Shown here piece after piece: positions 10,963 through 45,329 of a stretch of DNA of 64,000 nucleotides; position 1 is the stretch's first letter; the number at the start of each line of letters is the position of its first letter. Location: the NCBI GenBank assembly GCA_043808095.1, contig JAZDFF010000001.1, positions 1,628-65,627 of the forward strand, written 5' to 3'. The stretch comes from Candidatus Omnitrophota bacterium. GTDB lineage: Bacteria; Omnitrophota; Gorgyraeia; JAZDFF01. A program made the translations under genes and the position numbers. The notes beneath the pieces were generated by a model that was not told where the DNA came from, searched no databases, and worked only from the letters and a program-made list of their open reading frames with translations.

Positions 10963-11036
10963 TCCCGAATGTTGTTACTATATTAGTTATTCTTCGGGAT
11001 CCCGAAGCGATACCATAGTAGTTACTACATTCGGGA
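10963..11036. repeat. MITE-like palindromic element: TIR TCCCGAATG...CATTCGGGA with central CTTCGGGATCCCGAAG
   Basis: One of five copies (10963, 29818 composite, 30846, 37328, 45256); the whole unit can fold as a hairpin. Confidence 0.6.
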
Positions 11037-11077
11037 TAAACTGTTTTCTGGTTACTCCCGAGCGAAGCGAGGGGAAC

Positions 11078-11917
11078 ATGCCTTTATTTGGAAAGCCGAA
11101 ATATACCATAGTGCGGGTAAAGAAAAAGGATATACCAGACGGTCTTTGGATGAAGTGCCTGGGTTGTTCTGAATTATTATATAATAAAACCCTGGATGAA
11201 AATCTTAAGGTTTGTCCAAAGTGCAATTACCACTTTACTCTAGGCGCAAAAGAAAGAATAGATTTCTTGATTGATAAAGACACCTTTGTTGAATTTGATA
11301 AAGATATGCTTACGGGGGATCCTCTTGAATTTAGGGGCCCGAAGAGTTACAAGGAAAAATTAAAAAAAGACCAAGAGGAGACCGGAATAAACGAGGCGGT
11401 TATTACTGGCGAAGGGCTACTTAACGGCAAAAAGATTATTGTCAATGTTACCGACTCCAGGTTTATTATGGGCTCGATGGGAACAGTGGTGGGCGAAAAG
11501 ATTACCCGTGCGATTGAACGCGCAACTGAGGAGGATCTTCCATTAGTGATTATCTCCGGTTCTGGCGGCGGGGCAAGGATGTATGAGGGGATGCTTTCTC
11601 TTATGCAGATGGCCAAGACCTCAGCGGCGTTGAACCATCATCACAATAAAAGTTTAGTCTTTATATCAGTATTGACCAATCCTACAATGGCTGGAGTATT
11701 GGCTTCTTTTGCAGGCCTAGGGGATGTCATTATCGCCGAGCCAAAGGCATTAATCGGTTTTACCGGCCCACGGGTTATTGAACAGACTATTCATCAGAAA
11801 TTACCACCCAATTTCCAGACTTCCGAATTTATGTTGGCGCATGGGCTAATTGATATGATTGTTAACCGCAAAAGCTTGAAAGAAACCCTTATCCAATTAG
11901 TGGATTATCTGGGTTGA
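11078..11917 (+). CDS. accD: Acetyl-CoA carboxylase carboxyltransferase subunit beta
   Basis: N-terminal C4 zinc ribbon (CLGCSE...CPKCNYHF) followed by the carboxyltransferase domain (GSMGTVVGEKI). Confidence 0.9.
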   Translation: MPLFGKPKYTIVRVKKKDIPDGLWMKCLGCSELLYNKTLDENLKVCPKCNYHFTLGAKERIDFLIDKDTFVEFDKDMLTGDPLEFRGPKSYKEKLKKDQEETGINEAVITGEGLLNGKKIIVNVTDSRFIMGSMGTVVGEKITRAIERATEEDLPLVIISGSGGGARMYEGMLSLMQMAKTSAALNHHHNKSLVFISVLTNPTMAGVLASFAGLGDVIIAEPKALIGFTGPRVIEQTIHQKLPPNFQTSEFMLAHGLIDMIVNRKSLKETLIQLVDYLG

Positions 11918-12194
11918 TACATTCGACTTCGTGGTTCGACAGGCTCACCACTTCTGGAACCATCCCGAACGAAGTTGAGGGGCTCAGTATCAATCCTGAG
12001 CGAGCGAAACGAATCTAAGGATTGATTTTCTTAAAATAGTTGGTATAATATGAACTTACGTTTAAGGGATAGAAAGGTGTAGTAAGAGGTAGCAGGGGTA
12101 AGGAGGGGCAAAATTTAAATCCCTTACTAACCCATTCTAACCCATGCTGACCCTTCCTAATCCTTAAATCTTTTGTATCAACAAGTGAGGGGAT

Positions 12195-13298
12195 ATGGCA
12201 CAAGTTAGTTTAAAAGATGTATCTAAAATCTACTATGGTAATATCAAAGCGGTTAATAAGGTAAATCTGGGAGTAGAAAACAAAGAATTTATGGTTTTGG
12301 TTGGGCCTTCCGGCTGCGGCAAATCCACGACTCTGCGTATGATTGCCGGTCTTGAAGAGGTTACCGAAGGCAAGGTCTTTATTGGCGATAAATTAGTCAA
12401 TGATGTACCTGCTAAGGACCGTGATATTGCTATGGTATTTCAGAATTACGCGCTTTATCCGCATATGACGGTTTTTGAAAATATGGCCTTTGGGTTAAAA
12501 TTGAGGCGCTATCCCAAGAATGAGATTGTGCGCCGGGTAAATGAGGCTGCAGAGATCTTGGGCCTAAAAGAACTTTTCAAACGGTTTCCCAGAGAACTTT
12601 CCGGCGGAGAGAGGCAAAGAGTGGCGGTGGGAAGGGCCATTGTGCGTAAGCCCATGGTCTTTCTTTTTGATGAACCTCTAAGTAACCTTGATGCCAAACT
12701 GCGCGTGCAGATGCGCACTGAGATTCATAAACTTCATCTTCGGCTTCAGACGACGATGATCTATGTTACCCATGATCAGGTGGAGGCAATGACCCTTGGC
12801 TCAAGGATTGCCGTAATGAAGAATGGCGAGATTTTACAATTTAATGACCCCATCAATGTATATGATAAGCCTAAGAATCGTTTTGTGGCTAGTTTTATCG
12901 GGACGCCTCCTATGAATTTTATGGACGGACAACTGATTAAAAAAGACGGCAAATTATACTTTAATGAGGGTAAATTTCAGGCCAAAGTAGTCGAAGGGAT
13001 GTATAAACCATTGCAGCCTTATCTAGGAAAGAATGTTACTTTTGGGATTCGTTCAGAAGATATCTATGATAAATTATTTGTTTCTGAGGCACCGCCGGAT
13101 AACATCGTCAGGGCAACTTGTGAAGTAGTAGAACCAATGGGCTCAGAGGTCTATTTGTATTTGAGAACAGATAAGCATACATTTATTGCCCGCGTAGGGG
13201 CTCATGACCGACCAGAAATAAACCAGGATATGGATTTGGTATTTGACATGAGCAAGGTGCACTTTTTTGATAAAGATACCGAAGTTACAATCGTATAA
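12195..13298 (+). CDS. ABC transporter ATP-binding protein, MalK/UgpC-type (orphan; no permease or binding protein nearby)
   Basis: Walker A GPSGCGKST, signature LSGGERQRVAVGRA, Walker B FLFDEPLSNLD, and a C-terminal MalK-like regulatory domain. Confidence 0.85.
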   Translation: MAQVSLKDVSKIYYGNIKAVNKVNLGVENKEFMVLVGPSGCGKSTTLRMIAGLEEVTEGKVFIGDKLVNDVPAKDRDIAMVFQNYALYPHMTVFENMAFGLKLRRYPKNEIVRRVNEAAEILGLKELFKRFPRELSGGERQRVAVGRAIVRKPMVFLFDEPLSNLDAKLRVQMRTEIHKLHLRLQTTMIYVTHDQVEAMTLGSRIAVMKNGEILQFNDPINVYDKPKNRFVASFIGTPPMNFMDGQLIKKDGKLYFNEGKFQAKVVEGMYKPLQPYLGKNVTFGIRSEDIYDKLFVSEAPPDNIVRATCEVVEPMGSEVYLYLRTDKHTFIARVGAHDRPEINQDMDLVFDMSKVHFFDKDTEVTIV

Positions 13299-17085: not shown

Positions 17086-17096
17086 GTGGGGGGATT

Positions 17097-20034: not shown

Positions 20035-20212
20035 CAAATACGGATAGAGAATAAATTTTCTAGAAAACTACCAAGGGATATGAGCTAAGGCAGGGTTTAG
20101 GTTAAGTAATATAGGCTGTCACGAAATTCATTCCAACCTATGATTACAGTGATTTTAAATAAGATTCCAGTGATTATCTCGATGACATGCTTAATCGCCG
20201 TAATCTATTTTC

Positions 20213-20302
20213 TTCCCGCTTTACGGGATCCCGCTGGATATTTTCTATTGCGCGGGATAATCACCGTAATCAAGGGCGGCACTTTTGTGACGCCCTATTA
20301 AG
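20213..20302 (+). promoter_or_regulatory. Conserved ~90-nt leader element (copy 1), upstream of ugd
   Basis: ~90% identical to 52594-52687; contains the palindrome GCGGGATCCCGC and an AGGGCG...CGCCCT hairpin. Confidence 0.45.
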
Positions 20303-21770: not shown

Positions 21771-22217
21771 ATGATTGATGGAGTCAAGATAAAAGAATTA
21801 AAGATAATACCTGATGAGCGCGGCAGGCTTATGGAGATACTTAGGGTAGACGACCCTATCTTTAAAAAATTTGGCCAGGTCTATATGACTACTGCCAAAC
21901 CCGGCGTCGTTAAGGCCTGGCATTACCACAAATTACAGATCGATAATTTCACTTGCGTTAATGGACGTATTCGCCTTGTCCTCTACGATGCCAGAGCAGA
22001 TTCTCCTACTTACGGCGAAATCAACGAATTTACCTTAAGCCTTAATGAGCCTAAGCTTATCCAGATACCGCCTAATGTGTATCACGGTTTTAAAGGTATA
22101 AGCGACATCGAGGCCGTAGTTATTAATACGGTAACTCATCCTTATAACAGGCAGTCTCCTGATGAGTACAGGGTTGACGCATTTGATAATACAATAGATT
22201 ATGACTGGAGGAAATAA
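21771..22217 (+). CDS. RmlC-like cupin, dTDP-4-dehydrorhamnose 3,5-epimerase / sugar isomerase family
   Basis: MIDGVKIKELKIIPDERGRLMEI...GQVYMTTAKPGVVKAWHYH fits the RmlC-like fold. Start moved to ATG 21771; the track's 21738 start lies inside an upstream palindrome. Confidence 0.6.
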   Translation: MIDGVKIKELKIIPDERGRLMEILRVDDPIFKKFGQVYMTTAKPGVVKAWHYHKLQIDNFTCVNGRIRLVLYDARADSPTYGEINEFTLSLNEPKLIQIPPNVYHGFKGISDIEAVVINTVTHPYNRQSPDEYRVDAFDNTIDYDWRK

Positions 22218-22467
22218 ATGAAGCCCAAACTTACGGAGCAATAGCGAACGTAAGTTTGCTGGCTGAATTTACCCCCACACCAATTGGCTTATAATTTTAG
22301 GCAGTATTAACAATTGGTGTGGGGGTCCAATTCGCTCGCCACTAATTCTTTGGCGAGCGTCCGCCAAAGTTTTAGTGGAGGACGCATTAACAAAGATGCT
22401 GTTCATAAGAGATTGACTTATGTCGTCATTCTGACTCCATAAGTCAAGTGTTCATTGGAGGAAATAA

Positions 22468-30791: not shown

Positions 30792-30845
30792 TAATATAAA
30801 TGATAAATTTCCAATATCCAATAATACCAATGAATGTCCAATTTC

Positions 30846-30921: not shown

Positions 30922-31014
30922 CAATGACCAATTAGATAATTGAGATTTGGGATTTCATTGGGATTTGGTAGTTATTGGTAATTATTGGGATTTAAGTGTA
31001 AAGGGGTTGTCCAA

Positions 31015-31623: not shown

Positions 31624-31698
31624 GGAATGAACGTCCAATATCCAATAAATACCAATAATACCAATGAATTTCCAATGACCAATAACCAATAAATACCA

Positions 31699-32052
31699 AT
31701 GGCCAAGGAATATGATATCAAAGACAGGACTTTTAGTTTTGCACAAAGGGTTTTAGAAATAGTAGGTATGTTGCCCAAGATAGTAGAATGCGATGTAATT
31801 CGTAAACAACTTACTGAGGCAGGGACTTCCGTAGGCGCAAACGTTGAAGAAGCAGACGGTGCCTTAAGCAAAAAGGATTTTATAAATAAGATGGGTATAG
31901 CCAGAAGAGAGGCTAAAGAGAGCAGATATTGGTTGAGGCTTATTTCAGGAAAGTATATTAATGAGGAGAAGATTGCCAAAGATATAATTGAAGCAAATGA
32001 ACTCAAAAATATCTTAAGTTCAATTATTGAGAATACTAATAAATCCAAATAA
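31699..32052 (+). CDS. Four-helix-bundle protein of the 23S rRNA-intervening-sequence / Avd family
   Basis: 117 aa. The pattern LxxxGxxxxxxE...SxxDFxxKxxIARREAKESRYWLRL matches this family, to which the DGR accessory protein Avd belongs. Confidence 0.6.
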   Translation: MAKEYDIKDRTFSFAQRVLEIVGMLPKIVECDVIRKQLTEAGTSVGANVEEADGALSKKDFINKMGIARREAKESRYWLRLISGKYINEEKIAKDIIEANELKNILSSIIENTNKSK

Positions 32053-32131
32053 TGGCTTATAAATTGGAAATTGGTATTTGGGATTTTATTGGAGGTTGGT
32101 ATTTATTGGTAATTATTGGGATTTAAAGAGT

Positions 32132-33766
32132 ATGAATCTTTTCACCAACAAGACTGGTTTTGCCTTATTTATCTCTATCTTCATCATCCTGGCTTTCTCA
32201 ACCATAGCGCTTCTTTGCTTTAATCTTCTGACTGTCCAGGACGATGCCGCCATCCGCAATCTCTATTCCATAAGGGCCTATTACCTGGCAGAGGCAGCCA
32301 GACAGCTTTGGTTAGAATACTATGTGCCTTGGGGGAGTGATTTTTGCAATGACGGCTCTGATGAAAAGCCAAACGAATTCCCTGATAATATTACCCGTAC
32401 CATAAACGGCGGAACACTTAATATTCATTATGTAGCTAGACAAGCACCTGAGCAGGCTACCACTGTGCAATTTTCCGGTTCGGTCCCTTTAAGTGGTCAG
32501 CAAATCAGCCGCAGCTTTACCCAGGATTTTTCTTTTCCCTTGGGTTCAGCTGCCTTTAATCTCAGGAGGGATTTGCAGAATTTTGTGTTGGCTACCTTTA
32601 ATGCTGGTTCAAGTAGTTGTTTTTATCTGGGAGGTGATACCGGACTTAGCGGGCAGAGCCTTCCACTATATTTCTTTGCTAAGGCGTGTAGTGATTGTGC
32701 TGGGTCACAATGCAACGAAGAATCCGACCCTCAGTATATTTTTCGTAGTTTTGGGAATGTCTATATGGGAAATTTTGATGTAGTACTTAGAATTGCACAG
32801 ATTGGAGATTCATCTAATCAGCGAAACCTTTATATGAATATACCCAGCGGTTCTAAAAAATTACATATATTTGAATGTTCAAGAATAAATGGCAATCTTT
32901 ATCGTCGCAATACTGACTTAAATTGTTTCCCAATTATTAATTCCGGTTGGCAGGGTATGTGCTATGTTTACCAGCTCGCAGGGGGGCCTTGTCCTAGCTG
33001 TAACAGTTGTTGTAAAGATTCCAATTGCGATTCTTCTTGTTTCGTTTCTGACGCTGGCTGGCCAGCTTCACCACCACAACCTATCCCCAGCAAACCCGTT
33101 ATTGATAATAGTTATTTCAATCAGGAGCTTAAAATTGCATTTCAGAGCGGAAGCACTTCTGGTTCTCCCCTTTCTGGTGACTTAGGAAAGAGGAATCGCT
33201 ATTTTAATCTGGCTAATTTGAATATTGATGGTGATATCAGCGGCGGGCCTGCTAATATTGTAACTACGGGCAGGATACTTATTGCTGATAATGTGAAGAT
33301 AGGCGAGAAAATAACTCTTATATGCGGGGATGATGTTTCCAATACTGACCCAAATGAAGAATATATTTATTTAGGCTCAGATAACGTAATAGGCGGCACC
33401 TATTCTGGCGGCCAGATTTCAGGCGGAGGAAGCCTTATATATAGTCGTAATGACAGTACTAGCCTTACATACGCTCCGCTTTATATTCCTGACGGTGCAA
33501 GGATAAAGGCAAGCATATTATCGCCAGGATTAGTGTGGATAAATAGCCAGGATAGTTGGAATATCTGGGGCACAGTTTATTCTGGAAGCGTTATATCAAT
33601 CACAGGAGGTCAGGGAGAACTTCGTGGTAGGATTTTTAGCGACGCCCCTGCACCGGATCCTTCAAAAGATGGGCCCTTTAATATGACCCTTTATGAAGAA
33701 TCAAATCTTCCTTTAAGGCTTAAAGGCCTTTATAATATCTCCACCAGCAACTGGCGGGAGCAGTAG
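32132..33766 (+). CDS. PilX-like large secreted protein, paralog 1 (pilin-type N-terminal anchor, Cys-rich variable body)
   Basis: N-terminus KTGFALFISIFIILAFSTIALLCFNLL is a PilX_N-like helix. C-terminus ...RLKGLYNISTSNWREQ is shared with the paralogs at 33951 and 35679. Confidence 0.65.
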   Translation: MNLFTNKTGFALFISIFIILAFSTIALLCFNLLTVQDDAAIRNLYSIRAYYLAEAARQLWLEYYVPWGSDFCNDGSDEKPNEFPDNITRTINGGTLNIHYVARQAPEQATTVQFSGSVPLSGQQISRSFTQDFSFPLGSAAFNLRRDLQNFVLATFNAGSSSCFYLGGDTGLSGQSLPLYFFAKACSDCAGSQCNEESDPQYIFRSFGNVYMGNFDVVLRIAQIGDSSNQRNLYMNIPSGSKKLHIFECSRINGNLYRRNTDLNCFPIINSGWQGMCYVYQLAGGPCPSCNSCCKDSNCDSSCFVSDAGWPASPPQPIPSKPVIDNSYFNQELKIAFQSGSTSGSPLSGDLGKRNRYFNLANLNIDGDISGGPANIVTTGRILIADNVKIGEKITLICGDDVSNTDPNEEYIYLGSDNVIGGTYSGGQISGGGSLIYSRNDSTSLTYAPLYIPDGARIKASILSPGLVWINSQDSWNIWGTVYSGSVISITGGQGELRGRIFSDAPAPDPSKDGPFNMTLYEESNLPLRLKGLYNISTSNWREQ

Positions 33767-33950
33767 AAAAGGATTGGGACAATTAAGTAGTAGTTTCGTC
33801 TTAAAAGGTTATAGGGTTGCGGTTACGTATCGTATGAAAAGTTATCGTTGGTCGTTTATCGTATAAATACGACAGACAAAACTGATACACGATGGACGAT
33901 ACGTGTCCGAGGCCGAAACCGATAAAACGTCAGACAAGGTTTTATTAATC

Positions 33951-35501
33951 ATGCATCTACCTATCAATAAAAGTGGCTTTGCTCTTTTTATCTCTATCTT
34001 CATCATCCTGGCATTTTCCACCATCGCCCTGCTTTGCTTTAATCTTTTAACTGTCCAGGACGATGCCGCTATCCGCAATCTCTACTCCATCCGTGCCTAT
34101 TACCTGGCAGAGGCAGCCAGGCAGCTGTGGTTAGAATACTATCCAAGCTGGGGAAATGATTTTACCAACACGACCCAGTTTCCCGATGGCACCACCCGCA
34201 CTTTAAATGGCGGACAATTTAGTTTCAGCTATATCAGTCGCAACAGCCGTTTGGCCAGCTTGAACTTTACCGGAAGCATCCCCCTGGGCACAACTACGGT
34301 TACCAAAGGTTTTAGGCAGGATTTTAGCGATTCATCCTCAGCGCTCTTTAGAGACTTAAATAATTTTGTCTTAGGGGTGTTTAATGATGATGAGGTCTAT
34401 GCCTTGGGTGGGGATAATCCTGCAGAAGGACGTTATTATTATACATACGGTTGCGCATGCGCACAAGGCTGTAGCACGACACTTAATCAAAGATACATCT
34501 TTCGTGCATTTGGTAATGTTTATCTCGATGGCCCTTCGTCTTCTCCTAATGGGAGACATCTATTTAAGTTAGGCGAGATTGGTTATCCTAATGATCCTAG
34601 TAAACCCAGAGAGCTCTATATAACAGGTAAAGGAATAGGTTCGGGGGTGCTTATTAGTGAATGTACAAGGATATACGGTAATCTTAGGATAACTAATGCC
34701 TACCTTCATCATCATCAACTTGAATCAGGTGGTTTTAGTAAGTGTAGATTAAATGTAGTTAGCAGTTCACCTTATTATTGTGTAAATCCTCTAGATCCCC
34801 CTAATGTTTGTGATGGTAGTTGCTATAGTGGTGCTGCTGGCACTTTACCTCAACCCGCAAAACCCGATATAAACACCTATTTTACGCAAGAACTGCAATT
34901 GGCCCAAAATTGTTCCAGCGGTGGTTATTGCTGGAATGGCAATGGTATTGCTGGTCCAACAACTTTAACTAAAAATGTTTATTATAGCGGCTCTGATGAT
35001 TTTTATTTAACGGGAGATATTAACGTCATTTTTCCGATAAATATCGTTATTAACTTAACCAATGCAACTAAATCAGTAAGGATCCAATCTGGAGCCAAGG
35101 TTTCAGGAAAGATAACCATTATCTCTTCTGGTAAGATTGTTACATATGGTGATGAAATAAGGGTCGGCGATATAAATTTAACCTGCCCTAGCTCTCTTAT
35201 TTATTCACATTCAGATGCTAATCCTGCCATAGAAATCAATGCCTCTCCTGAAATCAAGGCAAATATCTTATCTCGGGGTTCGGTTGATTTAGCAGAACAA
35301 CAGACTCCCAAGATTTGGGGCACAATCTATGCCTGGGAGATTGATGCCTATCAAGCTGGTCAGGCCAATATCTATGGCCCAGTATTCGTTGACCAGACAG
35401 AAATAGATAAACCCCTTAATCTTACCTTAAACGAGGCCCCGCTTTCCTTTAGAATCAGGGGCCTGTATAATATAGCCTCCAGCAACTGGCAGGAGCAGTA
35501 G
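33951..35501 (+). CDS. PilX-like large secreted protein, paralog 2
   Basis: Same N-terminal ~65 aa and C-terminal GLYNIASSNWQEQ as paralog 1; the middle is unrelated. Confidence 0.65.
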   Translation: MHLPINKSGFALFISIFIILAFSTIALLCFNLLTVQDDAAIRNLYSIRAYYLAEAARQLWLEYYPSWGNDFTNTTQFPDGTTRTLNGGQFSFSYISRNSRLASLNFTGSIPLGTTTVTKGFRQDFSDSSSALFRDLNNFVLGVFNDDEVYALGGDNPAEGRYYYTYGCACAQGCSTTLNQRYIFRAFGNVYLDGPSSSPNGRHLFKLGEIGYPNDPSKPRELYITGKGIGSGVLISECTRIYGNLRITNAYLHHHQLESGGFSKCRLNVVSSSPYYCVNPLDPPNVCDGSCYSGAAGTLPQPAKPDINTYFTQELQLAQNCSSGGYCWNGNGIAGPTTLTKNVYYSGSDDFYLTGDINVIFPINIVINLTNATKSVRIQSGAKVSGKITIISSGKIVTYGDEIRVGDINLTCPSSLIYSHSDANPAIEINASPEIKANILSRGSVDLAEQQTPKIWGTIYAWEIDAYQAGQANIYGPVFVDQTEIDKPLNLTLNEAPLSFRIRGLYNIASSNWQEQ

Positions 35502-35678
35502 AAAATGATTGTAGAGATTATAAATCAAAATGCAAAATTCAGGTTTAGGGGTTAGTAGGATTAAGTAGGGAGTAGTAAGGGTAAGAAAGGGATAAATTAT
35601 AAAAACCCATCCTAACCCCTTCTAACCCTTTCTATCCCTTCCTAACCCTTAAATCTTTGATTTTTATCTTACAAAAGT

Positions 35679-37295
35679 ATGAATCTATCCACTCACAAAG
35701 GTTTTGCCTTATTTATCTCTATCTTCATCATCCTGGCATTTTCAACCATTGCCTTACTTTGTTTTAATCTCTTGACGGTCCAGGATGATGCAGCCATCCG
35801 TAATCTCTACTCCATCCGTGCATATTACCTGGCAGAGGCAGCCAGGCAACTCTGGTTGGAATACTATGCACCCTGGGGCGCAGATTTTACTATTAGTAGT
35901 CAATTCCCTTCAGTAACCAAGACCTTAGCAGTAAATCAATTCAGTATCAATTATTCTCCTTATGGCCAGGATGCCGGCCCACTTACTCAGCAGAGAAAAG
36001 CTCGAGTCCATTTTCAAGGAATAATTCTATCTATCCCTATCACTAGAACATTTTTTCTGGACATAGATGCTGAACCCAAGACTGCCTTAACCAGGACCTG
36101 CGCCTCTGACAAAAGAGACTGTCTGAGCGGTGATTTAAAGAATTTTGTTTTGAATTATAATGGCAGTTCTGATCTCAACTTGGCAGGAACATTAGATTAT
36201 TGTTGTTGTACTGGTTTTAATGGTAGTAGTTGTTGTGGTACTTATGGTTGTCCTTTTGGAGATTGTGTTGGTTATCCGCCTTTTAGAGGCCCTGTCGTCA
36301 CTGGGGATGTCTATTCGAATAGAAATGTTTATTTCAAATCCGGAGAGATTAACGGAAATCTTTATAGCAGTTCCAATATTCAGGTCCGTGAATGTGCAAG
36401 GATAATAAATGGTTCGGTATATCACGGCGGAGCGCTTAATTGTTGTCGTGTTTCTGGGTTAGTCCCGCCTCTTGTTTCTTGTAAATGTGATAATAGTTAT
36501 ACCTGTAACAATTATTGCTGCGGCGGTGGCCCTTGTCTAACTGATGGTGGCGCTTCCGGCCCTAAGCCGGCTCCTTCAAAGCCAGCGATTGATACTACAT
36601 ATTTTGATAAACAGATTGAGTGTGCCCAAACTTATGGCGAAGTGCCATCTGGTGGGACTAAAACTATCTCTAGTGATGTGAATTTAGGAACTACAGGAGA
36701 TATCTATGTTAATGGAAAGATAGTCATTAACTGCACCGGTGACTGCACCGGTGGGAGTACAAATATCTCTACTACTGGTAGGTCGTGTAATATAGTGGCT
36801 ACTGGTGATATTGAGGTCACGAGGTCACATATTTCTGAGCGGATAAACCTAATCAGTGGAGGCAGGATTTTGACGAATGGCGATCCAACCTATGGTCCAA
36901 CAGTAATCGGCGGTGATTATTCTGCCGGCCCTCCTGAGCAGGTCACGGGCGTGGGTTGTCTTCTCTATGCACGGGCACAAACCAATCCTATAGCAATTAT
37001 TAGAGATTCTATGGTTAAGGCAAGAATATTGACACCAGCATCGGGTTCAGTAAGCATAATAAGCGGAAGTAATGACTGCGCAGGAAAGATCTGGGGTATA
37101 GTCTATACAAAGACCACTGATCTATCGGATACACGTAAATGTCCGAGTATTGTTGGCAGTATATTTACAGACAGTCTCTCTTCAACAATGCAATTTGGAC
37201 CTACCGAAGATGGTACTGGCAATTCCAATCTTTTTCTTCCTCTGAGGCTTAGAGGCCTTTATAATATCTCTACCAACAACTGGCAGGAGCAGTGA
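35679..37295 (+). CDS. PilX-like large secreted protein, paralog 3
   Basis: Same N- and C-terminal modules as paralogs 1 and 2; very Cys-rich variable middle (CCCTGFNGSSCCGTYGCPFGDC...). Confidence 0.65.
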   Translation: MNLSTHKGFALFISIFIILAFSTIALLCFNLLTVQDDAAIRNLYSIRAYYLAEAARQLWLEYYAPWGADFTISSQFPSVTKTLAVNQFSINYSPYGQDAGPLTQQRKARVHFQGIILSIPITRTFFLDIDAEPKTALTRTCASDKRDCLSGDLKNFVLNYNGSSDLNLAGTLDYCCCTGFNGSSCCGTYGCPFGDCVGYPPFRGPVVTGDVYSNRNVYFKSGEINGNLYSSSNIQVRECARIINGSVYHGGALNCCRVSGLVPPLVSCKCDNSYTCNNYCCGGGPCLTDGGASGPKPAPSKPAIDTTYFDKQIECAQTYGEVPSGGTKTISSDVNLGTTGDIYVNGKIVINCTGDCTGGSTNISTTGRSCNIVATGDIEVTRSHISERINLISGGRILTNGDPTYGPTVIGGDYSAGPPEQVTGVGCLLYARAQTNPIAIIRDSMVKARILTPASGSVSIISGSNDCAGKIWGIVYTKTTDLSDTRKCPSIVGSIFTDSLSSTMQFGPTEDGTGNSNLFLPLRLRGLYNISTNNWQEQ

Positions 37296-37320
37296 AAAAA
37301 TGATTCCAGCGATTAAGAAG

Positions 37321-37570
37321 ATGATTATCCCGAATGATGTTATTCTTTGTAGTGTCTCTTCGGGATCCCGATGTAATTCTTAAGAAGTTACTACATTCGG
37401 GACAGCGATAAAAGATACGATTACAGCAAGAGAACCATATTTAATATCCAATGTCCAATATCCAATAAATACCAATAATACCAATGAATGTCCAATTGCC
37501 AATTGGATAGTTGGGATTTGGAGAATTTATTGGAGTTTGGTATTTATTGGTAATTATTGGGATTTAAAGA
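37321..37570. repeat. Right direct repeat flanking the pilin/PilX-like locus
   Basis: See the 29811-30150 entry; ends in the ...GGGATTTAAAGAGT-ATG junction that also precedes paralog 1. Confidence 0.7.
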
Positions 37571-37572
37571 GT

Positions 37573-37650
37573 ATGAATCTTTTCACCAACAAGACTGGTT
37601 TTGCCCTTTTTATCTCTATCTTCATCATCCCGGTCTTTTTGGTTATCGCT
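37573..37650 (+). pseudogene. Truncated fourth copy of the PilX-like N-terminal module (promoter-proximal fragment or silent cassette)
   Basis: ATGAATCTTTTCACCAACAAGACTGGTTTTGCC... is nearly identical to the 5' end of paralog 1 (32132). Homology is lost after ~25 codons; the frame runs into the trpB start. Confidence 0.5.
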
Positions 37651-37712
37651 TTGTTCTCTCCGAGAATGAATAAATTGACAGTTCGTCAGATTATCTTTAT
37701 AATAAACCCATT

Positions 37713-38900
37713 ATGACAAAAAAATTACCCGATCATCACGGATATTTCGGTCAGTTCGGGGGGAAGTTTGTGCCTGAGACCCTGATGTATGCGCTCTCTG
37801 AATTAGGGGAGGCTTATAAGGCAGTTAGAAAAGACCCCGCCTTTAGGAGAGAACTAAGATATTATCTTCAGATTTACGCCGGAAGGCCAACACCTTTGTA
37901 TCCTGCCAGGAATTTAAGCAGATATTTAGGAAATCTAAAGGTCTGTCTAAAACGCGAAGACCTTCTGCATACCGGGGCCCATAAAATAAATAATGCCTTA
38001 GGTCAGGTGCTTTTAGCCCGGCGGATGAAAAAGACGCGCATTATTGCCGAGACCGGCGCCGGCCAGCACGGCGTTGCCACTGCCACAGTAGCGGCCTTGT
38101 TTGGCCTGGAGTGCGACATCTATATGGGGCTTGAAGATATCAAAAGACAGCACCAAAATGTCTTCAGGATGAAACTTCTGGGTGCGAGAGTTATCCCCGT
38201 TGATAGCGGCTCTAAGACTTTAAAAGATGCCTGTTCAGAGGCAATCCGGGATTGGGTGACTAATGTCAAGGATACCTATTATCTTATCGGTTCGGTTATC
38301 GGGCCGCATCCTTATCCGGTAATGGTGCGCGATTTTCAGACGGTGATCGGCGAGGAATCCAGAAGACAGATACTGGAGTTAGAGGCCAGGCTTCCTGATT
38401 ATCTAGTAGCCTGTGTCGGAGGCGGAAGTAATGCCATGGGTTTATTTTACCCTTTCTTTAAGGATAAAAAGGTGAAATTTATCGGGGTGGAGGCGGCAGG
38501 AAAAGGCCTCACTAGCGGTCTTCATTCGGCGAGTTTGGTTAAGGGAAGGATCGGGGTCTTACACGGCAGCAAGAGTTCGCTTCTACAGGATAAATACGGC
38601 CAGGTAAATATTGCCCATTCTATTGCCGCTGGCCTTGATTATCCTGGGGTGGGGCCGGAACATACCTATTATAAAAAGATAAAGCGAGCCGAATATGTAG
38701 CCGTAGGCGATCGGCAGGCCTTAGAGGGCCTGAGGCTCTTATCAGAAACTGAGGGAATCATCCCGGCCTTGGAGCCAAGCCATGCCATTTATTATTTAAA
38801 AATCTTAGCCAAGAAAATTAAGACCAGGGCCCTGGTTATTCTTTGTTTGTCAGGCAGAGGGGACAAAGACCTGGATATCGTTATGAAACATGGTTGCTAA
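37713..38900 (+). CDS. trpB: Tryptophan synthase beta chain
   Basis: [18 protein letters not shown] (PLP lysine), GSNAMG. Confidence 0.95.
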
Positions 38901-39001
38901 AATTACTAAGGTTACTAAAAGTTACTATAAGTTACAATATTCTAGCAACCTCATTTAACATCAGATAACCTCATAGAACCTCATTTAACCTTTTTGAAGT
39001 G

Positions 39002-39784
39002 ATGACACGAATCGATAAAAAGTTTAGAGATTTAAGAAGGCAGCATAAAAAGGCCTTTATTGCCTTTATCACTGCAGGAGACCCTGACCTTAATACCACT
39101 TTTAAATTAGCCCTGGAACTTGAAAAATCCGGGGTGGATATCATAGAGTTGGGGGTGCCATTTTCCGATCCTCTGGCTGACGGACCGGTTATACAGGCCG
39201 CTTCAGAGCGCAGCCTTAAAAAAGGAACTACCTTAGTTGGTGTAATTAATCTTATAAAGAGGATAAGAAGAGAGAGTAACATTCCTCTTGTGATAATGAG
39301 CTATTACAATCCTATTCTCAGTATGGGTGAGGAAAGGTTTACAATAGAAGCGCATCTGGCCGGTTTAGACGGACTGATTATCCCGGATTTACCTCCTGAA
39401 GAGTCGTCTTCCTTAATCTCTTTCTGCCGAAGCCATAATTTAAATAATATTTTATTTTTGTCCCCCACAAGTCCGATTTCACGGATTAAATCAATCACCA
39501 GGCTTACTAGCGGCTTTATCTATTATGTTTCTTTAACCGGAGTTACCGGCACCAGGGATAGATTGGCAGGACAGCTAGAGAACAGAATCAGGCTGATAAA
39601 GCGTTTTAGCAAAAAACCCGTGTGCGTCGGCTTCGGGATATCTAATAGGAATCAAGTGCAGAAAATTTCTAGATTTTCTGACGGCGTAATTATAGGAAGC
39701 GCGATTGTCAAAAAGATCCAGGATAACGTCGGTAATAAATATTTGGTAACCAAGGTCGGTAAGTTTGTAAGAAGCTTGATGTGA
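39002..39784 (+). CDS. trpA: Tryptophan synthase alpha chain
   Basis: ELGVPFSDPLADGPVIQ and GFGIS motifs. ATG at 39002; the track's 38999 is a GTG. Confidence 0.9.
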   Translation: MTRIDKKFRDLRRQHKKAFIAFITAGDPDLNTTFKLALELEKSGVDIIELGVPFSDPLADGPVIQAASERSLKKGTTLVGVINLIKRIRRESNIPLVIMSYYNPILSMGEERFTIEAHLAGLDGLIIPDLPPEESSSLISFCRSHNLNNILFLSPTSPISRIKSITRLTSGFIYYVSLTGVTGTRDRLAGQLENRIRLIKRFSKKPVCVGFGISNRNQVQKISRFSDGVIIGSAIVKKIQDNVGNKYLVTKVGKFVRSLM

Positions 39785-39929
39785 ATTAATTTAATTTTCA
39801 CTGAAAGAATCTAATGATGCGCAGATAATTACAGATAATCTGTGCCCATCTGTGAAAAACTAAATTTAAACTGCAATCTGTGCTTAAGCCGCAGGCTGAT
39901 CCGCCTGCGGCGGAAATCTGTGATATAAA

Positions 39930-41189
39930 ATGTATAATAAGATTAATTTGGAAAATAAATTACGGATTGTTACTTATCCTATGGAGGGATTAAGGTCAGT
40001 TTCCGTAGGTATCTGGATCGGAGTCGGCGGTCGGTTTGAAAATGCCTCTAACAAAGGCATATCGCATTTCCTAGAACACCTGGTTTTTAAAGGCTCTAGA
40101 AAATACTCCTGCGAAGAAATAAAACAGGGAATCGAGGGCTCGGGAGGAGCTTTAAACGGATTCACCTCAGAGGAATTTACCTGTTATCTGGTGAAGGTCT
40201 TAGACAAAAATATCCTTAAGGCGATTGATATCTTAGCGGATATGGTGGTAAATCCGCTGATTCCCTCCGTTGAAGTTGAAAAAGAACGCGGGGTAATTAT
40301 TGAAGAGATAAAGATGTATAAAGATCTACCCCAGCATTATGTCCATGAACTTTTAGACGGCTTGCTTTGGCCGAATCACCCCTTGGGAATGAACCTCGCC
40401 GGGACGGTTGATAGCGTATCCGGTATTTCCCGGGAAGACCTTTTTAAATTTCAATCCTTTTGGTATCCTGTTTCTAATATAGTGGTTGTGATATGTGGTG
40501 CCTTTCATGAAGCCAAGACAATAGAAAAAATCAAGGCCACTTTTAGAAAATTAGCCTCTGGTAAAAAAACGCAGTTTCTTAAATTTAGCGCAAAACAAAA
40601 TAGCCCTCGTTTTACAACCCTCAATAAAAAAACCGAACAAACTCACCTTGCCATGGGTTATCCCAGCCTAAAGAGAGATCATCCCAAAAAGTATGTCTTA
40701 AGTTTATTAAATACAATACTAGGCGCTAATATGTCCAGTCGCTTGTTTAAAGAGATACGCGAAAAAAGAGGCCTGGCTTATGAAATCGGCACAAGCTTAA
40801 AACGGCACGCTGATAGCGGCGCATTTGTCGTCCATGCTGGAATCGACAACAGAAATGTAATCCAGACCATCGATTTAATCCTAAAGGAATTTGATAAGAT
40901 AAAAAAGTTTTTGCCGACTAAGAGTGAATTTATGCGGGCCAAGGAGTTTTATTGCGGCCAGCTGATCATCGCCCTTGAAGACCCTCTTAATCAGATGCTT
41001 ATGTTGGGAGAAGACGTCCTGTCAAAGGACGAGATTCATTCTCCCCAAGAAACATTAAAAGAGATTGAAAAAATTAAGATTGAAGAAATATCGGAATTGG
41101 CCAAAGATATTTTTGACCCCAGGCATATTAATGTTGCCTTAATCGGGCCGGACAGCGGTATCGAGTCAAAGTTTAAAAAAATAATCTAA
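39930..41189 (+). CDS. M16-family zinc peptidase (insulinase/PqqL-like)
   Basis: Inverted zinc motif HFLEHLVFKGS (HxxEH) plus a downstream E. Confidence 0.85.
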   Translation: MYNKINLENKLRIVTYPMEGLRSVSVGIWIGVGGRFENASNKGISHFLEHLVFKGSRKYSCEEIKQGIEGSGGALNGFTSEEFTCYLVKVLDKNILKAIDILADMVVNPLIPSVEVEKERGVIIEEIKMYKDLPQHYVHELLDGLLWPNHPLGMNLAGTVDSVSGISREDLFKFQSFWYPVSNIVVVICGAFHEAKTIEKIKATFRKLASGKKTQFLKFSAKQNSPRFTTLNKKTEQTHLAMGYPSLKRDHPKKYVLSLLNTILGANMSSRLFKEIREKRGLAYEIGTSLKRHADSGAFVVHAGIDNRNVIQTIDLILKEFDKIKKFLPTKSEFMRAKEFYCGQLIIALEDPLNQMLMLGEDVLSKDEIHSPQETLKEIEKIKIEEISELAKDIFDPRHINVALIGPDSGIESKFKKII

Positions 41190-41207
41190 AACATCTTAAT
41201 TGAAAAA

Positions 41208-42233
41208 ATGAACGCCTTCGGTATTCCTCAAATAATTATAGTGGTCTTACTGTTGTTACTTTCGGCATTACTCTCTGCCTCAGAGACCTCGCTTATCGGC
41301 CTGAGTAAAATGCGGCTGCGCCATCTGGTTTCTAAAGGCGCCAAAGGTGCATTAGGCGTCCAGCGGCTTATCTCAAAATTAGATAAGGTCATCGCTGCAA
41401 TATTAATCGGCAACAACCTGATTAATACCGCAATATCTGTTATTGTTACTACCGGATTTGTCCTGATCTTCGGGCCGAAACTGGCAATGATTATCTCGAT
41501 ATTTTTTTTAACCTTTATCATTTTAGTATTCTGTGAGATAACGCCGAAAATCCTGGCCATTAAATTTACCGAGAAGGTTGCGTTTATCGTATCCCCGATA
41601 ATGGAGGTGATCTTAAAGATATTTTCTCCACTGATTCCTCTTTTTACCGTTGTCAGCGATTCGATATTGAAGGTATTAAGGGTTGAGCCGGTAAAACGTT
41701 CGCCGCTTATTACCGAAGAAGAACTGCGCCTGATGATTGAGGTCGGCAGAGACGAAGGCGTCTTAAGCGACGATGAAAGAAAGATGCTTTACCGTATCTT
41801 TGAGTTTGGCAATATCAAGGTTTCTGATGTAATGGTACCAAAGGAAAAAATCGTTGCCATAGATATCAAATCCGACCCCGAGGCCTTATTAAATATCCTT
41901 ACCGAGGAAGGTTATTCCAGGATTCCCGTTTACAGAGATTCCGTAGACACTATTATAGGAATTATCTATGCCAAGGATTTATTGCATATCTGGAGAAACA
42001 ATAAACTTTTTACCGTTGATGACCTGGTCCATGCGCCTTTTTATGCCAGACCCGAAGCAAAGGTAAATGATTTATTAAGGGAGTTTCAGAAGAACAAGGT
42101 TCAGATTGCCATTGTGGTAGGTGGCGAAAACAAGACTAAGGGCCTGGTGACCTTGGAGGATTTGTTTGAGGAGATTGTGGGAGAAATAGAAGAGGACAAA
42201 AAACCGCTTAAGAATCTTAAGAAGAAGACATAA
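41208..42233 (+). CDS. CNNM/HlyC/CorC-family transporter (DUF21 + tandem CBS)
   Basis: Four N-terminal TM helices (DUF21) followed by two CBS domains. Confidence 0.8.
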   Translation: MNAFGIPQIIIVVLLLLLSALLSASETSLIGLSKMRLRHLVSKGAKGALGVQRLISKLDKVIAAILIGNNLINTAISVIVTTGFVLIFGPKLAMIISIFFLTFIILVFCEITPKILAIKFTEKVAFIVSPIMEVILKIFSPLIPLFTVVSDSILKVLRVEPVKRSPLITEEELRLMIEVGRDEGVLSDDERKMLYRIFEFGNIKVSDVMVPKEKIVAIDIKSDPEALLNILTEEGYSRIPVYRDSVDTIIGIIYAKDLLHIWRNNKLFTVDDLVHAPFYARPEAKVNDLLREFQKNKVQIAIVVGGENKTKGLVTLEDLFEEIVGEIEEDKKPLKNLKKKT

Positions 42234-42490
42234 CTGAATGTATTGGCACATTCGCTTCGCTTTAGTGTCAACACCGAGAATATAGGCAAAGCAGTTTTCA
42301 TCGATGAATACGAAGGTGTTGACAAAAATTTATTTATGTGATACATTTATGAAGTCTTTAGATTAAAATTTTTTGAGAAACATAAAAAGGAGGATCGCAA
42401 AAACGCAAAAGAAAAATTTTTGGCGCTTTGGCGGCGTGAGTGTCTTAATACTAATTTGGCGTTTTGGCGATTAAAAAGGAGGAGGAAACA

Positions 42491-42631
42491 ATGGAAGCTT
42501 ATTGCGTAAAATGTAAGTCAAAGAAAGAGATGAAGGATACCCAAAACGTTACTTTAAAGAACGGCCGCAAGGCAATTAAAGGCAAATGCCCTGATTGTTC
42601 AACTGGCATGTTTAGGATAACAGGTAAGTAG
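42491..42631 (+). CDS. Small zinc-ribbon protein (46 aa), absent from the ORF track
   Basis: Strong RBS AAAGGAGGAGG 7 nt upstream of the ATG. CxxC...CxxC pattern (CVKC...CPDC). Read directly from the sequence. Confidence 0.45.
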   Translation: MEAYCVKCKSKKEMKDTQNVTLKNGRKAIKGKCPDCSTGMFRITGK

Positions 42632-43007
42632 GCTTCATAACTAAAATAAAAAATAAATTATAGGGCGTCATAAAAATTCCGCCCTTGATTGCAGAGGTTA
42701 CAAAATCTGATTATGCGGATTTCCGCCTTTGGCGAAAAATATTCCGAAGAAACAATCTTTGTAATCATTAGGCTAAAACGATACTTCGACTTTGTCCTGC
42801 TTCGACAGGCTCAGTATTCGCCCTGAGCGAGCGAAATCCCTCGACTGCGCTCGGGATGGTTCGAGGGGTGGTGAGCCCTTCGATTACGCTCAGGGCAAAT
42901 GGTGAGCAAAGTCGAACCAGAGCAAGTCGAACCACGAGTCGAAAGGCTCAGTATTCGTCCTGAGTGAAATCGAAGGACGAATTTTATGACAGCCTAAATA
43001 AATTATT

Positions 43008-43364
43008 TTGAAGAGGCAGGAGAAAATAGACTCCAAAGAGAAATCAATATTAGCTACTAGATTTGCCAAGGACAAGAAGGCAGAAGAAATTACAGTCTTA
43101 GATATGCGTAAGACCTCTAACTTCTGCGATTTCTTTGTTATTATGTCCAGCGCCTCAACGCGGCAGTCAAAGGCAATAGCCGATGCCATCGAAAAAGGCC
43201 TCGGTTCTAAGAAGGTCAGATTGCTTCATTGCGAAGGCAAAAGCGAGGGCCTTTGGATTTTGCAGGATTACGGCGATGTAATCGTGCATATTTTTAATCA
43301 GGATATCAGGTCTTTTTATTGTCTTGAGCGGCTGTGGAGCGATGCCCAAAGACTGGATTTTTAA
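43008..43364 (+). CDS. rsfS: Ribosomal silencing factor RsfS (Iojap-like)
   Basis: DFFVIMSSASTRQSKAIADAI...WILQDYGDVIVHIF...RSFYCLERLW matches the RsfS consensus. Confidence 0.8.
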   Translation: MKRQEKIDSKEKSILATRFAKDKKAEEITVLDMRKTSNFCDFFVIMSSASTRQSKAIADAIEKGLGSKKVRLLHCEGKSEGLWILQDYGDVIVHIFNQDIRSFYCLERLWSDAQRLDF

Positions 43365-43504
43365 TAAGCACATCCCGATGTAACGTCGGGATAAGTGCGA
43401 ATTTAACCCCCGTCGCTTTGCTTCGCAAAGCGAAGCAGCGGGGGTAAGTTCGGACAAATAACTTATGTCGCTCTACAGGCTCCATAAGTTATGTCCTCAC
43501 TTAT

Positions 43505-45175
43505 GTGACAAAAGAAGTATTGGTAGAACAAAACCTAATAAAACTTGTAAATAAAGCCGTCCAAGATAATTTCCCTTCCGTAACTTTAGACGAACTGCCC
43601 ACCTATCTAGAAATACCCAAGGAATACAAATTCGGTGATTTCTCTTCAACCGTTGCCTTAAAGCTTAGTAAGATTTTAAAACAACCCCCTCTTGAAATCG
43701 CCAATATTCTTAAGAGCACCATTATCGCCACAATCGATTCCTCAAGGTTAAAAGATGTAATTTTTAAGACAGAGATACAACCTCCCGGTTTTATTAACTT
43801 CTTTATTAAGACGCAATATCTTTATGTGTTGTTAAATCAGATTATTCAAAAAGGAAAAGATTTTGCAAGGTCGGATTTGGGTAAAGGCGCTAATGTTTTA
43901 ATCGAGTTTATTAGCGCTAACCCTACTGGGCCGCTATCACTTGCCCATGGCCGTCAGGCAGCAGTGGGCGATGCCCTGGCCAATATTTTAGATTTTGCCG
44001 GCTTTAATGTAAGCAGGGAATATTATGTTAATGACGAAGGCCGCCAGATTGATTTATTGGGGGCCTCAATTGAGGCCCGTCTTAAGGAACTATTGGGCAA
44101 GACAAGTGCATTTCCCGAAGAAGGATATCACGGTAAATATATTTATGATATTTCCCGTGTAATTATTGATAAAAAAATTGATACGAAGGATAAAGGCATT
44201 GAATTTTTCTCAAAATTCGGCGTAGATTACATCCTGGAAATAATCAAGAATGACTTAGAGGATTTTGGGGTAAAGTTTGATTTCTGGTCCAGCCAAAAGG
44301 CATTAAGAGAAGATGGCAATATTGACGAGGCCTTGGATTTTTTGGCCAAGAAAAAATTGACCTATAAAGAAGATGATGCCCTCTGGTTTAAGTCCACTGC
44401 CTTTGGCGATGACAAGGATAGGGTGGTTATAAAAAAAGACAAGACGTTTACGTACCTGGCGCCTGACATCGCCTATCATCGGGATAAATTCAGACGCGGC
44501 TTTAACTGGCTGATTAATCTCTGGGGTCCGGATCATCACGGCTACATCCAGAGATTAAAGGCGGCGATAAAGGCCTTGGGCCATGATAAGGAAAGTCTTT
44601 CTGTTATTATTGTACAGCTAGTGACCTTATTAAGAGGCAAAGAGGCTGTCTCGATGTCTAAACGAAGCGGTGAATTTGTGAGTCTGCGAGATGTGATGAC
44701 TGATGTAGGAAAAGACGTAACCAGATTTTTCTTTTTAACACGCAGGACCGACAGCCACCTGGATTTCGACCTTGAACTGGCCAAGAAGCAATCGCAGGAA
44801 AACCCCGTATTTTATATCCAGTATGCCTATGCCAGAATCTGGGGGATTTTAGAGGGCGCCAAGGAAAAAGGCATCTCTCTTGGGGGTAAGACCAAGGCAG
44901 GGATTTTAGATAAAGAAGAAGAGATTATTATTATGCGGCTCTTAAATCGGTTTCCTCATATAATTTTAGCCAGTTATAAACTGCTTGATCCATATCCCCT
45001 GACAAGTTATCTCTTGGAACTAGTGGGCGCATTCCATAGATTCTATGACCGCCATAAGGTCCTAAGCGAAGATACTGACCTTACCAGTGCCAGGCTCATG
45101 CTTATCGAGGCAGTAAAGATAGTCCTTGAGAACGGCCTTACATTATTAGGTGTTTCCCGTCCCAAGAGGATGTAA
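43505..45175 (+). CDS. argS: Arginine--tRNA ligase
   Basis: Class I motifs SANPTGPLSLAHGRQA and MSKRSG; DALR-type C-terminal domain. Confidence 0.95.
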   Translation: MTKEVLVEQNLIKLVNKAVQDNFPSVTLDELPTYLEIPKEYKFGDFSSTVALKLSKILKQPPLEIANILKSTIIATIDSSRLKDVIFKTEIQPPGFINFFIKTQYLYVLLNQIIQKGKDFARSDLGKGANVLIEFISANPTGPLSLAHGRQAAVGDALANILDFAGFNVSREYYVNDEGRQIDLLGASIEARLKELLGKTSAFPEEGYHGKYIYDISRVIIDKKIDTKDKGIEFFSKFGVDYILEIIKNDLEDFGVKFDFWSSQKALREDGNIDEALDFLAKKKLTYKEDDALWFKSTAFGDDKDRVVIKKDKTFTYLAPDIAYHRDKFRRGFNWLINLWGPDHHGYIQRLKAAIKALGHDKESLSVIIVQLVTLLRGKEAVSMSKRSGEFVSLRDVMTDVGKDVTRFFFLTRRTDSHLDFDLELAKKQSQENPVFYIQYAYARIWGILEGAKEKGISLGGKTKAGILDKEEEIIIMRLLNRFPHIILASYKLLDPYPLTSYLLELVGAFHRFYDRHKVLSEDTDLTSARLMLIEAVKIVLENGLTLLGVSRPKRM

Positions 45176-45255
45176 TATATGAATCACGAATAAACACAAA
45201 TTTCACACTAATTAACACGAATATTAAAATTTACAAATTCGTGTCTATTCGTGTG

Positions 45256-45329
45256 TCCCGAATGAAGCAATTGATTGTGTTTAGCTTCGGGATCCCGAAG
45301 TGATTCTTAAGAAGTCACTACATTCGGGA
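45256..45329. repeat. MITE-like palindromic element (copy), upstream of recJ
   Basis: TCCCGAATG...CTTCGGGATCCCGAAG...CATTCGGGA. Confidence 0.6.

Follow-up and report, generated by a model that had tools for sequence, protein, structure and literature searches.

How does a hairpin-forming repeat of about 75 nt come to occupy the spacers between unrelated genes, and which part of its structure is conserved? The question is raised by a 64,000-nt stretch of a Candidatus Omnitrophota genome (assembly GCA_043808095.1, contig JAZDFF010000001.1, positions 1,628 to 65,627; hereafter the window), which is ~41% G+C and carries nearly every gene on the + strand. An earlier note had described there five copies of a ~74-bp palindromic element resembling miniature inverted-repeat transposable elements (MITEs). 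We find that the element is an inverted pair of short stem-loop units and that it recurs across dozens of species. The family probably consists of non-autonomous mobile elements of the repetitive extragenic palindromic (REP) doublet type, REPIN-like and specific to Omnitrophota.

Architecture of the element

On inspection of the sequence, all five reported sites (10963-11036, 29818-29967, 30846-30921, 37328-37402 and 45256-45329) begin with TCCCGAATG and end with CATTCGGGA, with cTTCGGGA meeting TCCCGAAg in the centre, as had been claimed. The exact 9-mers TCCCGAATG and CATTCGGGA are restricted to element loci within the window, and the central 14-mer TTCGGGATCCCGAA occurs six times at up to two mismatches, compared with 0.33 expected from dinucleotide shuffles. 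Each element, 75 nt in total, consists of two stem-loop units of 37-38 nt in inverted orientation, which abut without a spacer and are split between GGGA and TCCC. What had been taken for a central 16-bp perfect palindrome is the feet of two hairpins in contact; it is perfect at 10963, 30846 and 45256, but the 37328 copy (GAT) and the composite site at 29818 have it only in imperfect form.

A unit consensus was pooled from 160 half-elements of 90 copies, each read from the outside to the inside: TCCCGAA-T-G-n-A-G-n-n-a-C-T-n5-a-G-n5-C-T-TCGGGA. The stem has 7-8 bp and the loop, of ~22 nt, contains several near-invariant bases. Outside the 7-mers that the search pattern prescribes, conservation measured position by position is 82-94% at T8, G9, A11, G12, G24 and C30. 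A search with a profile of the unit (nhmmer) yielded 94 clusters, of which 87 are arranged as '+-', two as '++--' and two as '+--', with three lone or weak units; no '-+' or simple tandem arrangement was found among them. Identical right halves are paired with different left halves in two of the fetched loci (L016 and L069), and halves thus appear to reassort between copies.

The window contains six elements, one nested inside another. The first (10963-11036; units 10963-10999 and 11000-11036, with profile scores of 25.9 and 31.0 bits) lies 306 nt 3' of a DUF1015 gene and 41 nt 5' of accD. The site at 29818-29967, previously described as composite or double, is indeed composite, but it is not a double copy: a 75-nt element (29861-29935; units 29861-29897 and 29898-29935) sits at TCCCG^AAG of the right unit of a host element, where ^ marks the junction. 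The left part of the host (29818-29860) comprises its full left unit (29818-29855) and the first 5 nt (TCCCG) of its right unit; the right part (29936-29967) holds the remaining 32 nt, AAGAATAACC…CATTCGGGA, homologous to 37371-37402. The element at 30846-30921 is found 54 nt after one pilin-like gene (30288-30791) and 63 nt before another (30985-31623), both with an N_methyl prepilin motif in a Pfam scan. The copy at 37328-37402 follows the third of three ~540-aa paralogues by 32 nt and precedes trpB by 310 nt. The last (45256-45329) occupies the argS-recJ spacer, 80 nt past the argS stop and 28 nt ahead of the likely recJ ATG at 45358; its right half is identical to that of the 37328 copy at 34 of 37 positions.

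Conserved fold

The folding prediction suggested in the earlier note found the whole element to be stable on either strand (-22 to -32 kcal/mol, z-scores -3.7 to -7.5), yet the conserved fold proved to be a hairpin within each unit. Predicted stability of the whole does not by itself identify the fold under selection. A long single hairpin or cruciform was rejected: arm complementarity was 0.449 for real left/right pairs and 0.440 for chimeras between copies, with minimum free energies of -30.40 and -30.37 kcal/mol, respectively. There was no position-by-position correlation between halves or inside loops, and no candidate for an extra loop base pair rose more than ~0.2 above expectation.

As a safeguard against ascertainment bias, metagenome contigs were scanned with a pattern fixing only one unit, and the unconstrained partner unit was analysed. 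Among the matches listed, the partner stems were TCCCGAA/TTCGGGA (54), TGCCGAA/TTCGGCA (18) and TCCCGAT/TTCGGGA (9), with CCCCGAA/TTCGGGG and TCCCGTA/TACGGGA seen once each. In 109 aligned partner units the 8-pair within-unit stem was 96.4% paired, compared with 91.5% in shuffles, and 29 stem cells were changed on both sides where 5.8 were expected. No shuffle of 500 came up to these values, and every slid control fell far short. Most of the signal comes from pair 2:36 (CG in 82, GC in 22), where it may represent one inherited event, but double changes occur at three further stem pairs, giving compensatory changes at four of the eight. TGCCGAA is always accompanied by the TTCGGCA of its own unit, whereas the arms of one element do not covary together, and the paralogous nested copies in L046 and L048 differ by TACCGAA/TCCGGTA versus TGCCGAA/TTCGGCA. 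C/G heterodimers do not keep the central palindrome intact (…GGGATGCC…). Because the stem covaries within units and nothing covaries between halves, the conserved structure is one short hairpin per unit, and not a long hairpin or a palindromic duplex site. The inverted pairing would mean that either DNA strand, or RNA made from either, presents one 'sense' and one 'antisense' hairpin, so that the element would be functionally alike in both orientations.

Distribution across genomes

A strict two-unit pattern with 27 fixed bases was run against a one-genome-per-species collection of 596 Gb, in which that many fixed bases lead one to expect ~0.05 chance matches. It returned 87 stretches from 42 assemblies. 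The bona fide carriers, 39 of the 42, are all Omnitrophota-like species-level metagenome-assembled genomes (MAGs), labelled Omnitrophota/Omnitrophica, Planctomycetota, Planctomycetia or 'uncultured bacterium'. The other matches (L015, L067 and L084, from Terriglobales, Treponema and Bacteroidetes) were discarded as unrelated CCCGA-rich low-complexity repeats that do not match the unit profile. One MAG, CAZDNS01, contains 18 strict copies, and a one-unit pattern located the element on at least 120 metagenome contigs. The AccD and ArgS encoded in the window, itself part of an Omnitrophota MAG, are 100% identical to Omnitrophota proteins at NCBI. Our literature search found no description of the repeat content of Omnitrophota, or of repeats of this kind there.

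The earlier note had argued that a lack of further copies and of target-site duplications (TSDs) would point to locally duplicated regulatory DNA. No TSD was found in 88 copies, but many other copies exist. Local duplication has nevertheless contributed within the window. The 50 identical bp reported between the 29818 and 37328 copies were confirmed, and the likeness continues into both flanks; the two thus stem, as paralogues, from duplication of one intergenic segment and not from independent insertions, the 37328 copy being the uninterrupted paralogue of the 29818 host element. Both segments have flanks and arrays of CCAAT/ATTGG words in common, as an origin from duplicated regulatory DNA of the pilin locus would predict. 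As a general explanation, however, such an origin is refuted by the copies at 10963 and 45256, which stand in unrelated housekeeping spacers, and by the hundreds of copies in other genomes; we regard it as extremely improbable.

Evidence for mobility

The nested junctions at TCCCG^AAG within 29818-29967 are blunt and unshiftable, with no bases duplicated, and the same site is intact at 37328. L044, L046 and L056 also have a junction of the form TCCCG^element^AAG, and in L048 and L187 it is mirrored (CTT^CGGGA). Copies that are 94-99% identical occur on different contigs of one MAG, in either orientation (L072/L081, L068/L078, L046/L048 and L055/L062), and tblastx between the loci of these pairs revealed nothing in common beyond the element and its immediate flanks. 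The 10963 copy is 97% identical, in reverse orientation, to L154:6058-6131, which belongs to a 13.7-kb stretch of a metagenome contig that has no gene in common with the window.

Comparison of orthologous spacers points the same way. The gene order DUF1015-accD-ABC-GGDEF is kept in L088-L091 (AccD identity 79-84%), and the element is absent from the DUF1015-accD spacers (2-201 nt) of L088, L089, L090 and L091. L089 reads …AACTG TAAACTGTA… at the site where the window reads …ACTG, then the element, then TAAACTGT…. Nor is the element present between argS and recJ in the nearest relatives, L092 and L093 (ArgS 66%). L088 and L089 encode an identical AccD (P0002) yet have wholly different DUF1015-accD spacers (L088:1886-2086, 201 nt, versus L089:761-824, 64 nt), and intergenic regions in this lineage must therefore turn over very fast.

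The description as MITE-like thus holds in so far as the family is dispersed and non-coding and bears signs of mobility. A classical MITE would be an internally deleted derivative of an insertion sequence (IS) with a DDE transposase, recognised by its 9-bp terminal inverted repeats (TIRs) and inserted at a staggered cut. The exact 9-nt inverted termini (TCCCGAATG / CATTCGGGA), the short, non-coding, multi-copy form and a window without a transposase all fit this, as do the size class, terminal inverted repeats and intergenic position familiar from MITEs such as Correia elements. The lack of TSDs of 2-10 nt does not. In the 88 copies, flank matches at k=3-10 nt were not above chance, and the only exact match at k≥4 (k=7) is about what chance would give; the nested junctions are blunt. 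Moreover, the ends are arms of two separate hairpin stems, each terminus pairing with the centre of its own half and not with the other terminus, and the 1.3 Mb of DNA that we fetched contained no parent IS. We consider a classical MITE very unlikely.

Genomic context

The copies occupy short AT-rich spacers, at a median of 50 nt past the upstream stop and 71 nt ahead of the downstream start, and the genes on either side almost always point the same way. Only a weak logo emerges from the flanks, with TTR before the element and YAA after it, and it is the same on both flanks. No orientation bias relative to genes was detected, either from the asymmetric GAT variant (18 versus 13) or from the asymmetry of unit half-scores (22 versus 18, p=0.40), and strand polarity judged from G·T versus A·C stem mismatches was not significant (16 versus 7).

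A position always near gene ends could reflect an immobile host cis element selected at each locus, that is, a protein-binding site or an RNA hairpin pair serving, for example, as an mRNA stabiliser, a processing site or a regulator's operator for pilus and neighbouring genes. Near-invariant positions across many species, the covarying stem and the stable predicted folds (z -3.7 to -7.5) are consistent with this. When the 617 open reading frames (ORFs) around the first 87 loci were clustered, only type IV pilus genes recurred; clusters of such genes surround three of the five loci in the window and several of those fetched. A cis element selected at each locus is, however, difficult to reconcile with absence from the orthologous spacers of syntenic relatives, with orientation that is random relative to transcription, with nesting and near-identical copies at non-homologous loci, or with neighbours as unrelated as accD, recJ, trpB, pilins and glycosyltransferases. 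There is also no T-run terminator, promoter signal or Rfam match to support it. No terminator- or promoter-like site coincides with a copy (29000-46000 for terminators), and the sequences directly after the window elements (TAAACT, CAGTGA, CAATGA, CAGCGA and TAATTC) have no T-run. Rfam gave no match at gathering thresholds across the window, which is also without tRNAs; a search around two copies returned miRNA matches no better than chance (E≥0.33) and nothing else. We judge an immobile cis element unlikely, although some copies may have been exapted by the host.

Readings of the element as an intrinsic terminator or a sigma-70 promoter were negative. An integron attC site was rejected as well: the termini are TCCCGAATG / CATTCGGGA instead of R''/R' core sites (RYYYAAC … GTTRRRY), the neighbours are syntenic housekeeping genes, and the window has no integrase.

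Search for a transposase

The window had been said to lack a transposase, and Pfam scans of 26 ORFs, synteny with L091 and tblastn with Y1 transposase seeds found none. The Pfam matches, of a housekeeping kind, comprise sugar-nucleotide enzymes, ArgS, RecJ, an AddA-like helicase, PNPase, FtsK and S15, together with pilin-like proteins and a giant protein resembling C25 peptidases. Synteny with L091 extends over the first 20 kb, which contain chaperone and housekeeping genes. No transposase recurs beside the element among the 617 ORFs around the first 87 loci.

The proposed search for a cognate IS200/IS605-type transposase was extended to the 1.3 Mb of fetched DNA and found no cognate enzyme there: the Y1 genes carry different inverted repeats. 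With approximate IS200, IS608 and E. coli REP-associated tyrosine transposase (RAYT) sequences as seeds, together with the protein encoded by L065:716-1717, tblastn retrieved only L065 itself and one more homologue, L011. The L065 protein combines Y1_Tnp with a DnaA_C helix-turn-helix and scores 69 bits against the NCBIfam model 'REP-associated tyrosine transposase', whose cut-off is 80. The genes in L065 and L011, and two further Omnitrophota homologues, lie within inverted repeats of their own (GGGGACGTAGTTAGAT…, GGGTCAGGTCTTTACA and GGGACGGAGTTAA…) and not within TCCCGAA units; for the Y1_Tnp genes at L065:648-1725, L011:6965-7975 and L214:250-1370 these repeats are 16-25 bp long. Homologues on many 1.1-1.5 kb contigs and in Elusimicrobia and Endomicrobiales suggest that these genes form an active IS-like family. 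They correspond to what Di Nocera et al. (PMC3733652) call the 'TIRYT' class and provide no link to the hairpin element.

Comparison with known systems

REP doublets, or REPINs, are mobilised by RAYTs (Bertels & Rainey 2011, PMC3116915; PMC3337134). Like them, the Omnitrophota elements are short extragenic palindromic units arranged as inverted doublets, probably in many copies per genome, without TSDs; they are non-coding and so would have to be mobilised in trans, and near-identical copies are found at unrelated loci. Unlike REPINs, the units abut without a spacer, and in place of a near-perfect hairpin each has a short stem and a large loop that is conserved in part. The halves do not covary together, no RAYT flanked by these units was found in the fetched DNA, and the sequence is conserved across many species whereas REPINs are species-specific.

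Dimers of GTAG REPs are described as head-to-head homo- and heterodimers with stems of 5-13 bp and loops of 2-20 nt (Di Nocera et al. 2013, PMC3733652). In Opitutus terrae, a member of the Planctomycetes-Verrucomicrobia-Chlamydiae (PVC) superphylum, the partners are 1-2 bp apart, and intragenic in-frame REP dimers encode 20-30 residues (PMC3733652). The Omnitrophota stem falls within this range, head-to-head homo- and heterodimers differing in the stem occur, and the host belongs to the PVC superphylum. In L029:5916-5990 (JBFMEB010000009) a 75-nt copy lies in frame within a long ORF, to which it would add 25 residues (…VPNVETALAILRDPEVILKGVASFG…), which again resembles the GTAG dimers; L076:5420-5494 is a possible second in-frame copy. 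The Omnitrophota loop is slightly longer, at ~22 nt, and G-N-AG, with N mostly T or A, lies in the loop beside the 5' stem arm and not outside the stem. A link to a tyrosine transposase would be putative for the present element.

The modular hairpin units in alternating orientation, and halves that appear to reassort, recall the bacterial interspersed mosaic elements (BIMEs) of E. coli, but the Omnitrophota element has no conserved linker motifs and gave no evidence here of IHF or gyrase binding. With the IS200/IS605-derived palindrome-associated transposable elements (PATEs) and with IS608-type single-strand transposition it shares hairpins at both ends, precise TSD-less insertion and a recurrent site next to TCCCG^. 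It differs from PATEs and from IS200/IS605 in lacking strand or orientation bias and in showing the same weak TTR logo on both flanks; it consists of two hairpins and nothing else, and TCCCG^ is found at nested sites only. Because there is no orientation bias, we reject the IS200/IS605-type model.

Model and points against it

The element is seen to insert precisely and without TSDs into short AT-rich spacers (TTR^…^YAA), and recurrently into TCCCG^AAG of resident copies. We propose that it is mobilised by an enzyme encoded elsewhere in the genome, most plausibly a single-stranded-DNA transposase of the HUH/Y1 class, of the RAYT/IS200 kind; we favour this class because insertion is precise, TSD-less and hairpin-dependent, and regard the assignment as inference only. 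Such an enzyme would recognise the hairpin together with conserved loop bases, which would explain why a covarying stem and fixed loop positions persist across species while other loop bases drift. Where they are co-transcribed, the hairpins may also influence the stability or processing of neighbouring mRNAs.

Several observations weigh against a REPIN-like mobile family. No cognate transposase, and no IS with these ends, was found in the fetched DNA; the only Y1 genes there (L065, L011 and L214-L216) are flanked by unrelated inverted repeats, and their family is common outside Omnitrophota too, in Elusimicrobia and Endomicrobiales. The GTAG-like motif (TG-N-AG) lies inside the loop, unlike that of canonical GTAG REPs, and the sequence is conserved more strongly over dozens of species than is usual for REPs. 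Since the relatives lacking the element at accD and recJ are distant and the spacers barely alignable, the comparison shows turnover, which at these two sites may be loss as well as gain. The loops of the five window copies differ substantially from one another, and so this part of the genome has seen no recent burst. Finally, near-identical copies are usually alike for 10-45 nt into flanking word repeats but not beyond; what moves may therefore be a larger unit, or the arrays may be the target.

Spacers in the window are full of arrays of 7-10-nt words, for example words of CCAAT type and then of ATTGG type, ACACGAAT / ATTCGTG, or CTGGTTACT. Arrays were located at 29981-30160, 30800-30845, 30922-31000, 31624-31700, 32069-32126 and 37444-37567, and on either side of elements at 45190-45255 and 45330-45350 and at 10945-10962 and 11037-11055. 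The hairpin elements are embedded in them, here and around copies in many other Omnitrophota loci. The words flanking near-identical copies are 7-9 nt long, such as GTAACCAG, CGGTTNA, AATTACCA and TTATGAGT. Either the arrays are a preferred target or they travel with the core.

On the latter basis, the 75-nt core could belong to a larger composite module that moves with the flanking 7-9-nt words, or could home into arrays by means of an enzyme other than Y1/HUH. The likeness of near-identical copies over 10-45 nt of word flank, with nothing in common further out, fits this: window 10934-11051 and L154:6043-6162 are 92% identical over 120 nt, L041/L069 (~165 nt) and L126/L204/L210 behave likewise, and each core subfamily is accompanied by its own word type. 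Yet nested copies have no words, word arrays occur without a core (for example in the argS-recJ spacer of L092), and the flank likeness is short and imperfect. We therefore think a composite module of this kind quite unlikely.

The REPIN-like family remains our preferred reading. A bolder version, which we put forward tentatively and rate as rather unlikely, is that the hairpin pair is the substrate of an Omnitrophota-wide enzyme distinct from the TIR-flanked Y1 genes, which would insert it bluntly and without TSDs at TCCCG^AAG or TTR^YAA, and that the core with its subfamily-specific arrays of 7-9-nt words constitutes a new type of composite intergenic module reshaping spacers throughout the phylum.

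Other repeats and genes in the window

A second family of abutting hairpins has the same junction of GGGA with TCCC: TCCCGC-nnnn-GCGGGA is followed directly by TCCCGCTGGAAaTTTTCTATTGyGCGGGA and then TAATCnCnGTAATCAAGGGCG. Copies at 20211-20278, 47387-47435 and 52592-52659, and a partial copy at 30167-30200, always lie just 5' of a gene, and two are 92% identical over 66 nt. A sigma-54 promoter was considered for this family and rejected by eye, the GG-to-GC spacing being 14 and not 12. Partner units in metagenomes include short-loop variants such as TCCCGaagtaTCGGGA joined to TGCCGAtataTTCGGCA. Concatenated TCCCG/CGGGA hairpins may thus form a wider superfamily.

Two further repeats are associated with gene ends. 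The palindromic repeat CACAGATTAGCACAGAT…ATCTGTGCTAATCTGTG is present at three of them (9285-9329, 26286-26342 and 63761-63805), and elements in L034, L082 and L086 have related TAATCTGTG words beside them. A hairpin repeat, AAATGAAGCCCAAACTTACGG…CGTAAGTTTG, lies 3' of three genes (22216-22258, 52241-52283 and 58731-58773).

In the pilin-like locus, a gene for a 23S rRNA intervening-sequence (four-helix-bundle) protein (31699-32052; PF05635, E=3.6e-19) lies between word arrays. It is followed by the three tandem ~540-aa paralogues (32078-33766, 33903-35501 and 35679-37295), which have no Pfam match but have in common a hydrophobic N-terminus and a C-terminal …GLYNI(S/A)(S/T)(S/N)NW(R/Q)EQ; the 5' and 3' ends of their genes are repeated at 75-88% DNA identity. 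The sequence at 37675-37703, 10 nt 5' of the trpB start, matches the sigma-70 consensus perfectly (TTGACA-17-TATAAT).

Directly before the accD ATG, CTCCCGARCGAAGYGAGGGRA is conserved between the window (11047-11077) and L089:795-824 and, judging from its sequence, could pair an anti-Shine-Dalgarno motif (CUCCC) with the GGGGA/GGGA ribosome-binding site. For recJ, ATG 45358 is the probable start and not GTG 45346 of the mechanical ORF listing, as the start annotated for the L092 gene (ATGTATAAAATCTGGCAGG) indicates.

Implications

The fixed nesting site and the covariation within units lead to testable predictions about the insertion mechanism, and the element offers a clean substrate for finding a hairpin-recognising enzyme. 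As a phylum-restricted 75-nt sequence it is a practical marker for binning and flags mislabelled MAGs, several carriers being labelled 'Planctomycetota' or 'Planctomycetia'; it is also a likely cause of assembly breaks. For the window itself, the repeats around the pilin locus are best viewed as selfish or structural DNA and not as pilin-specific regulatory sites. If a dedicated Omnitrophota-wide enzyme does act on the hairpin pair, the conservation across species would reflect long-term vertical co-evolution of the element and its enzyme.

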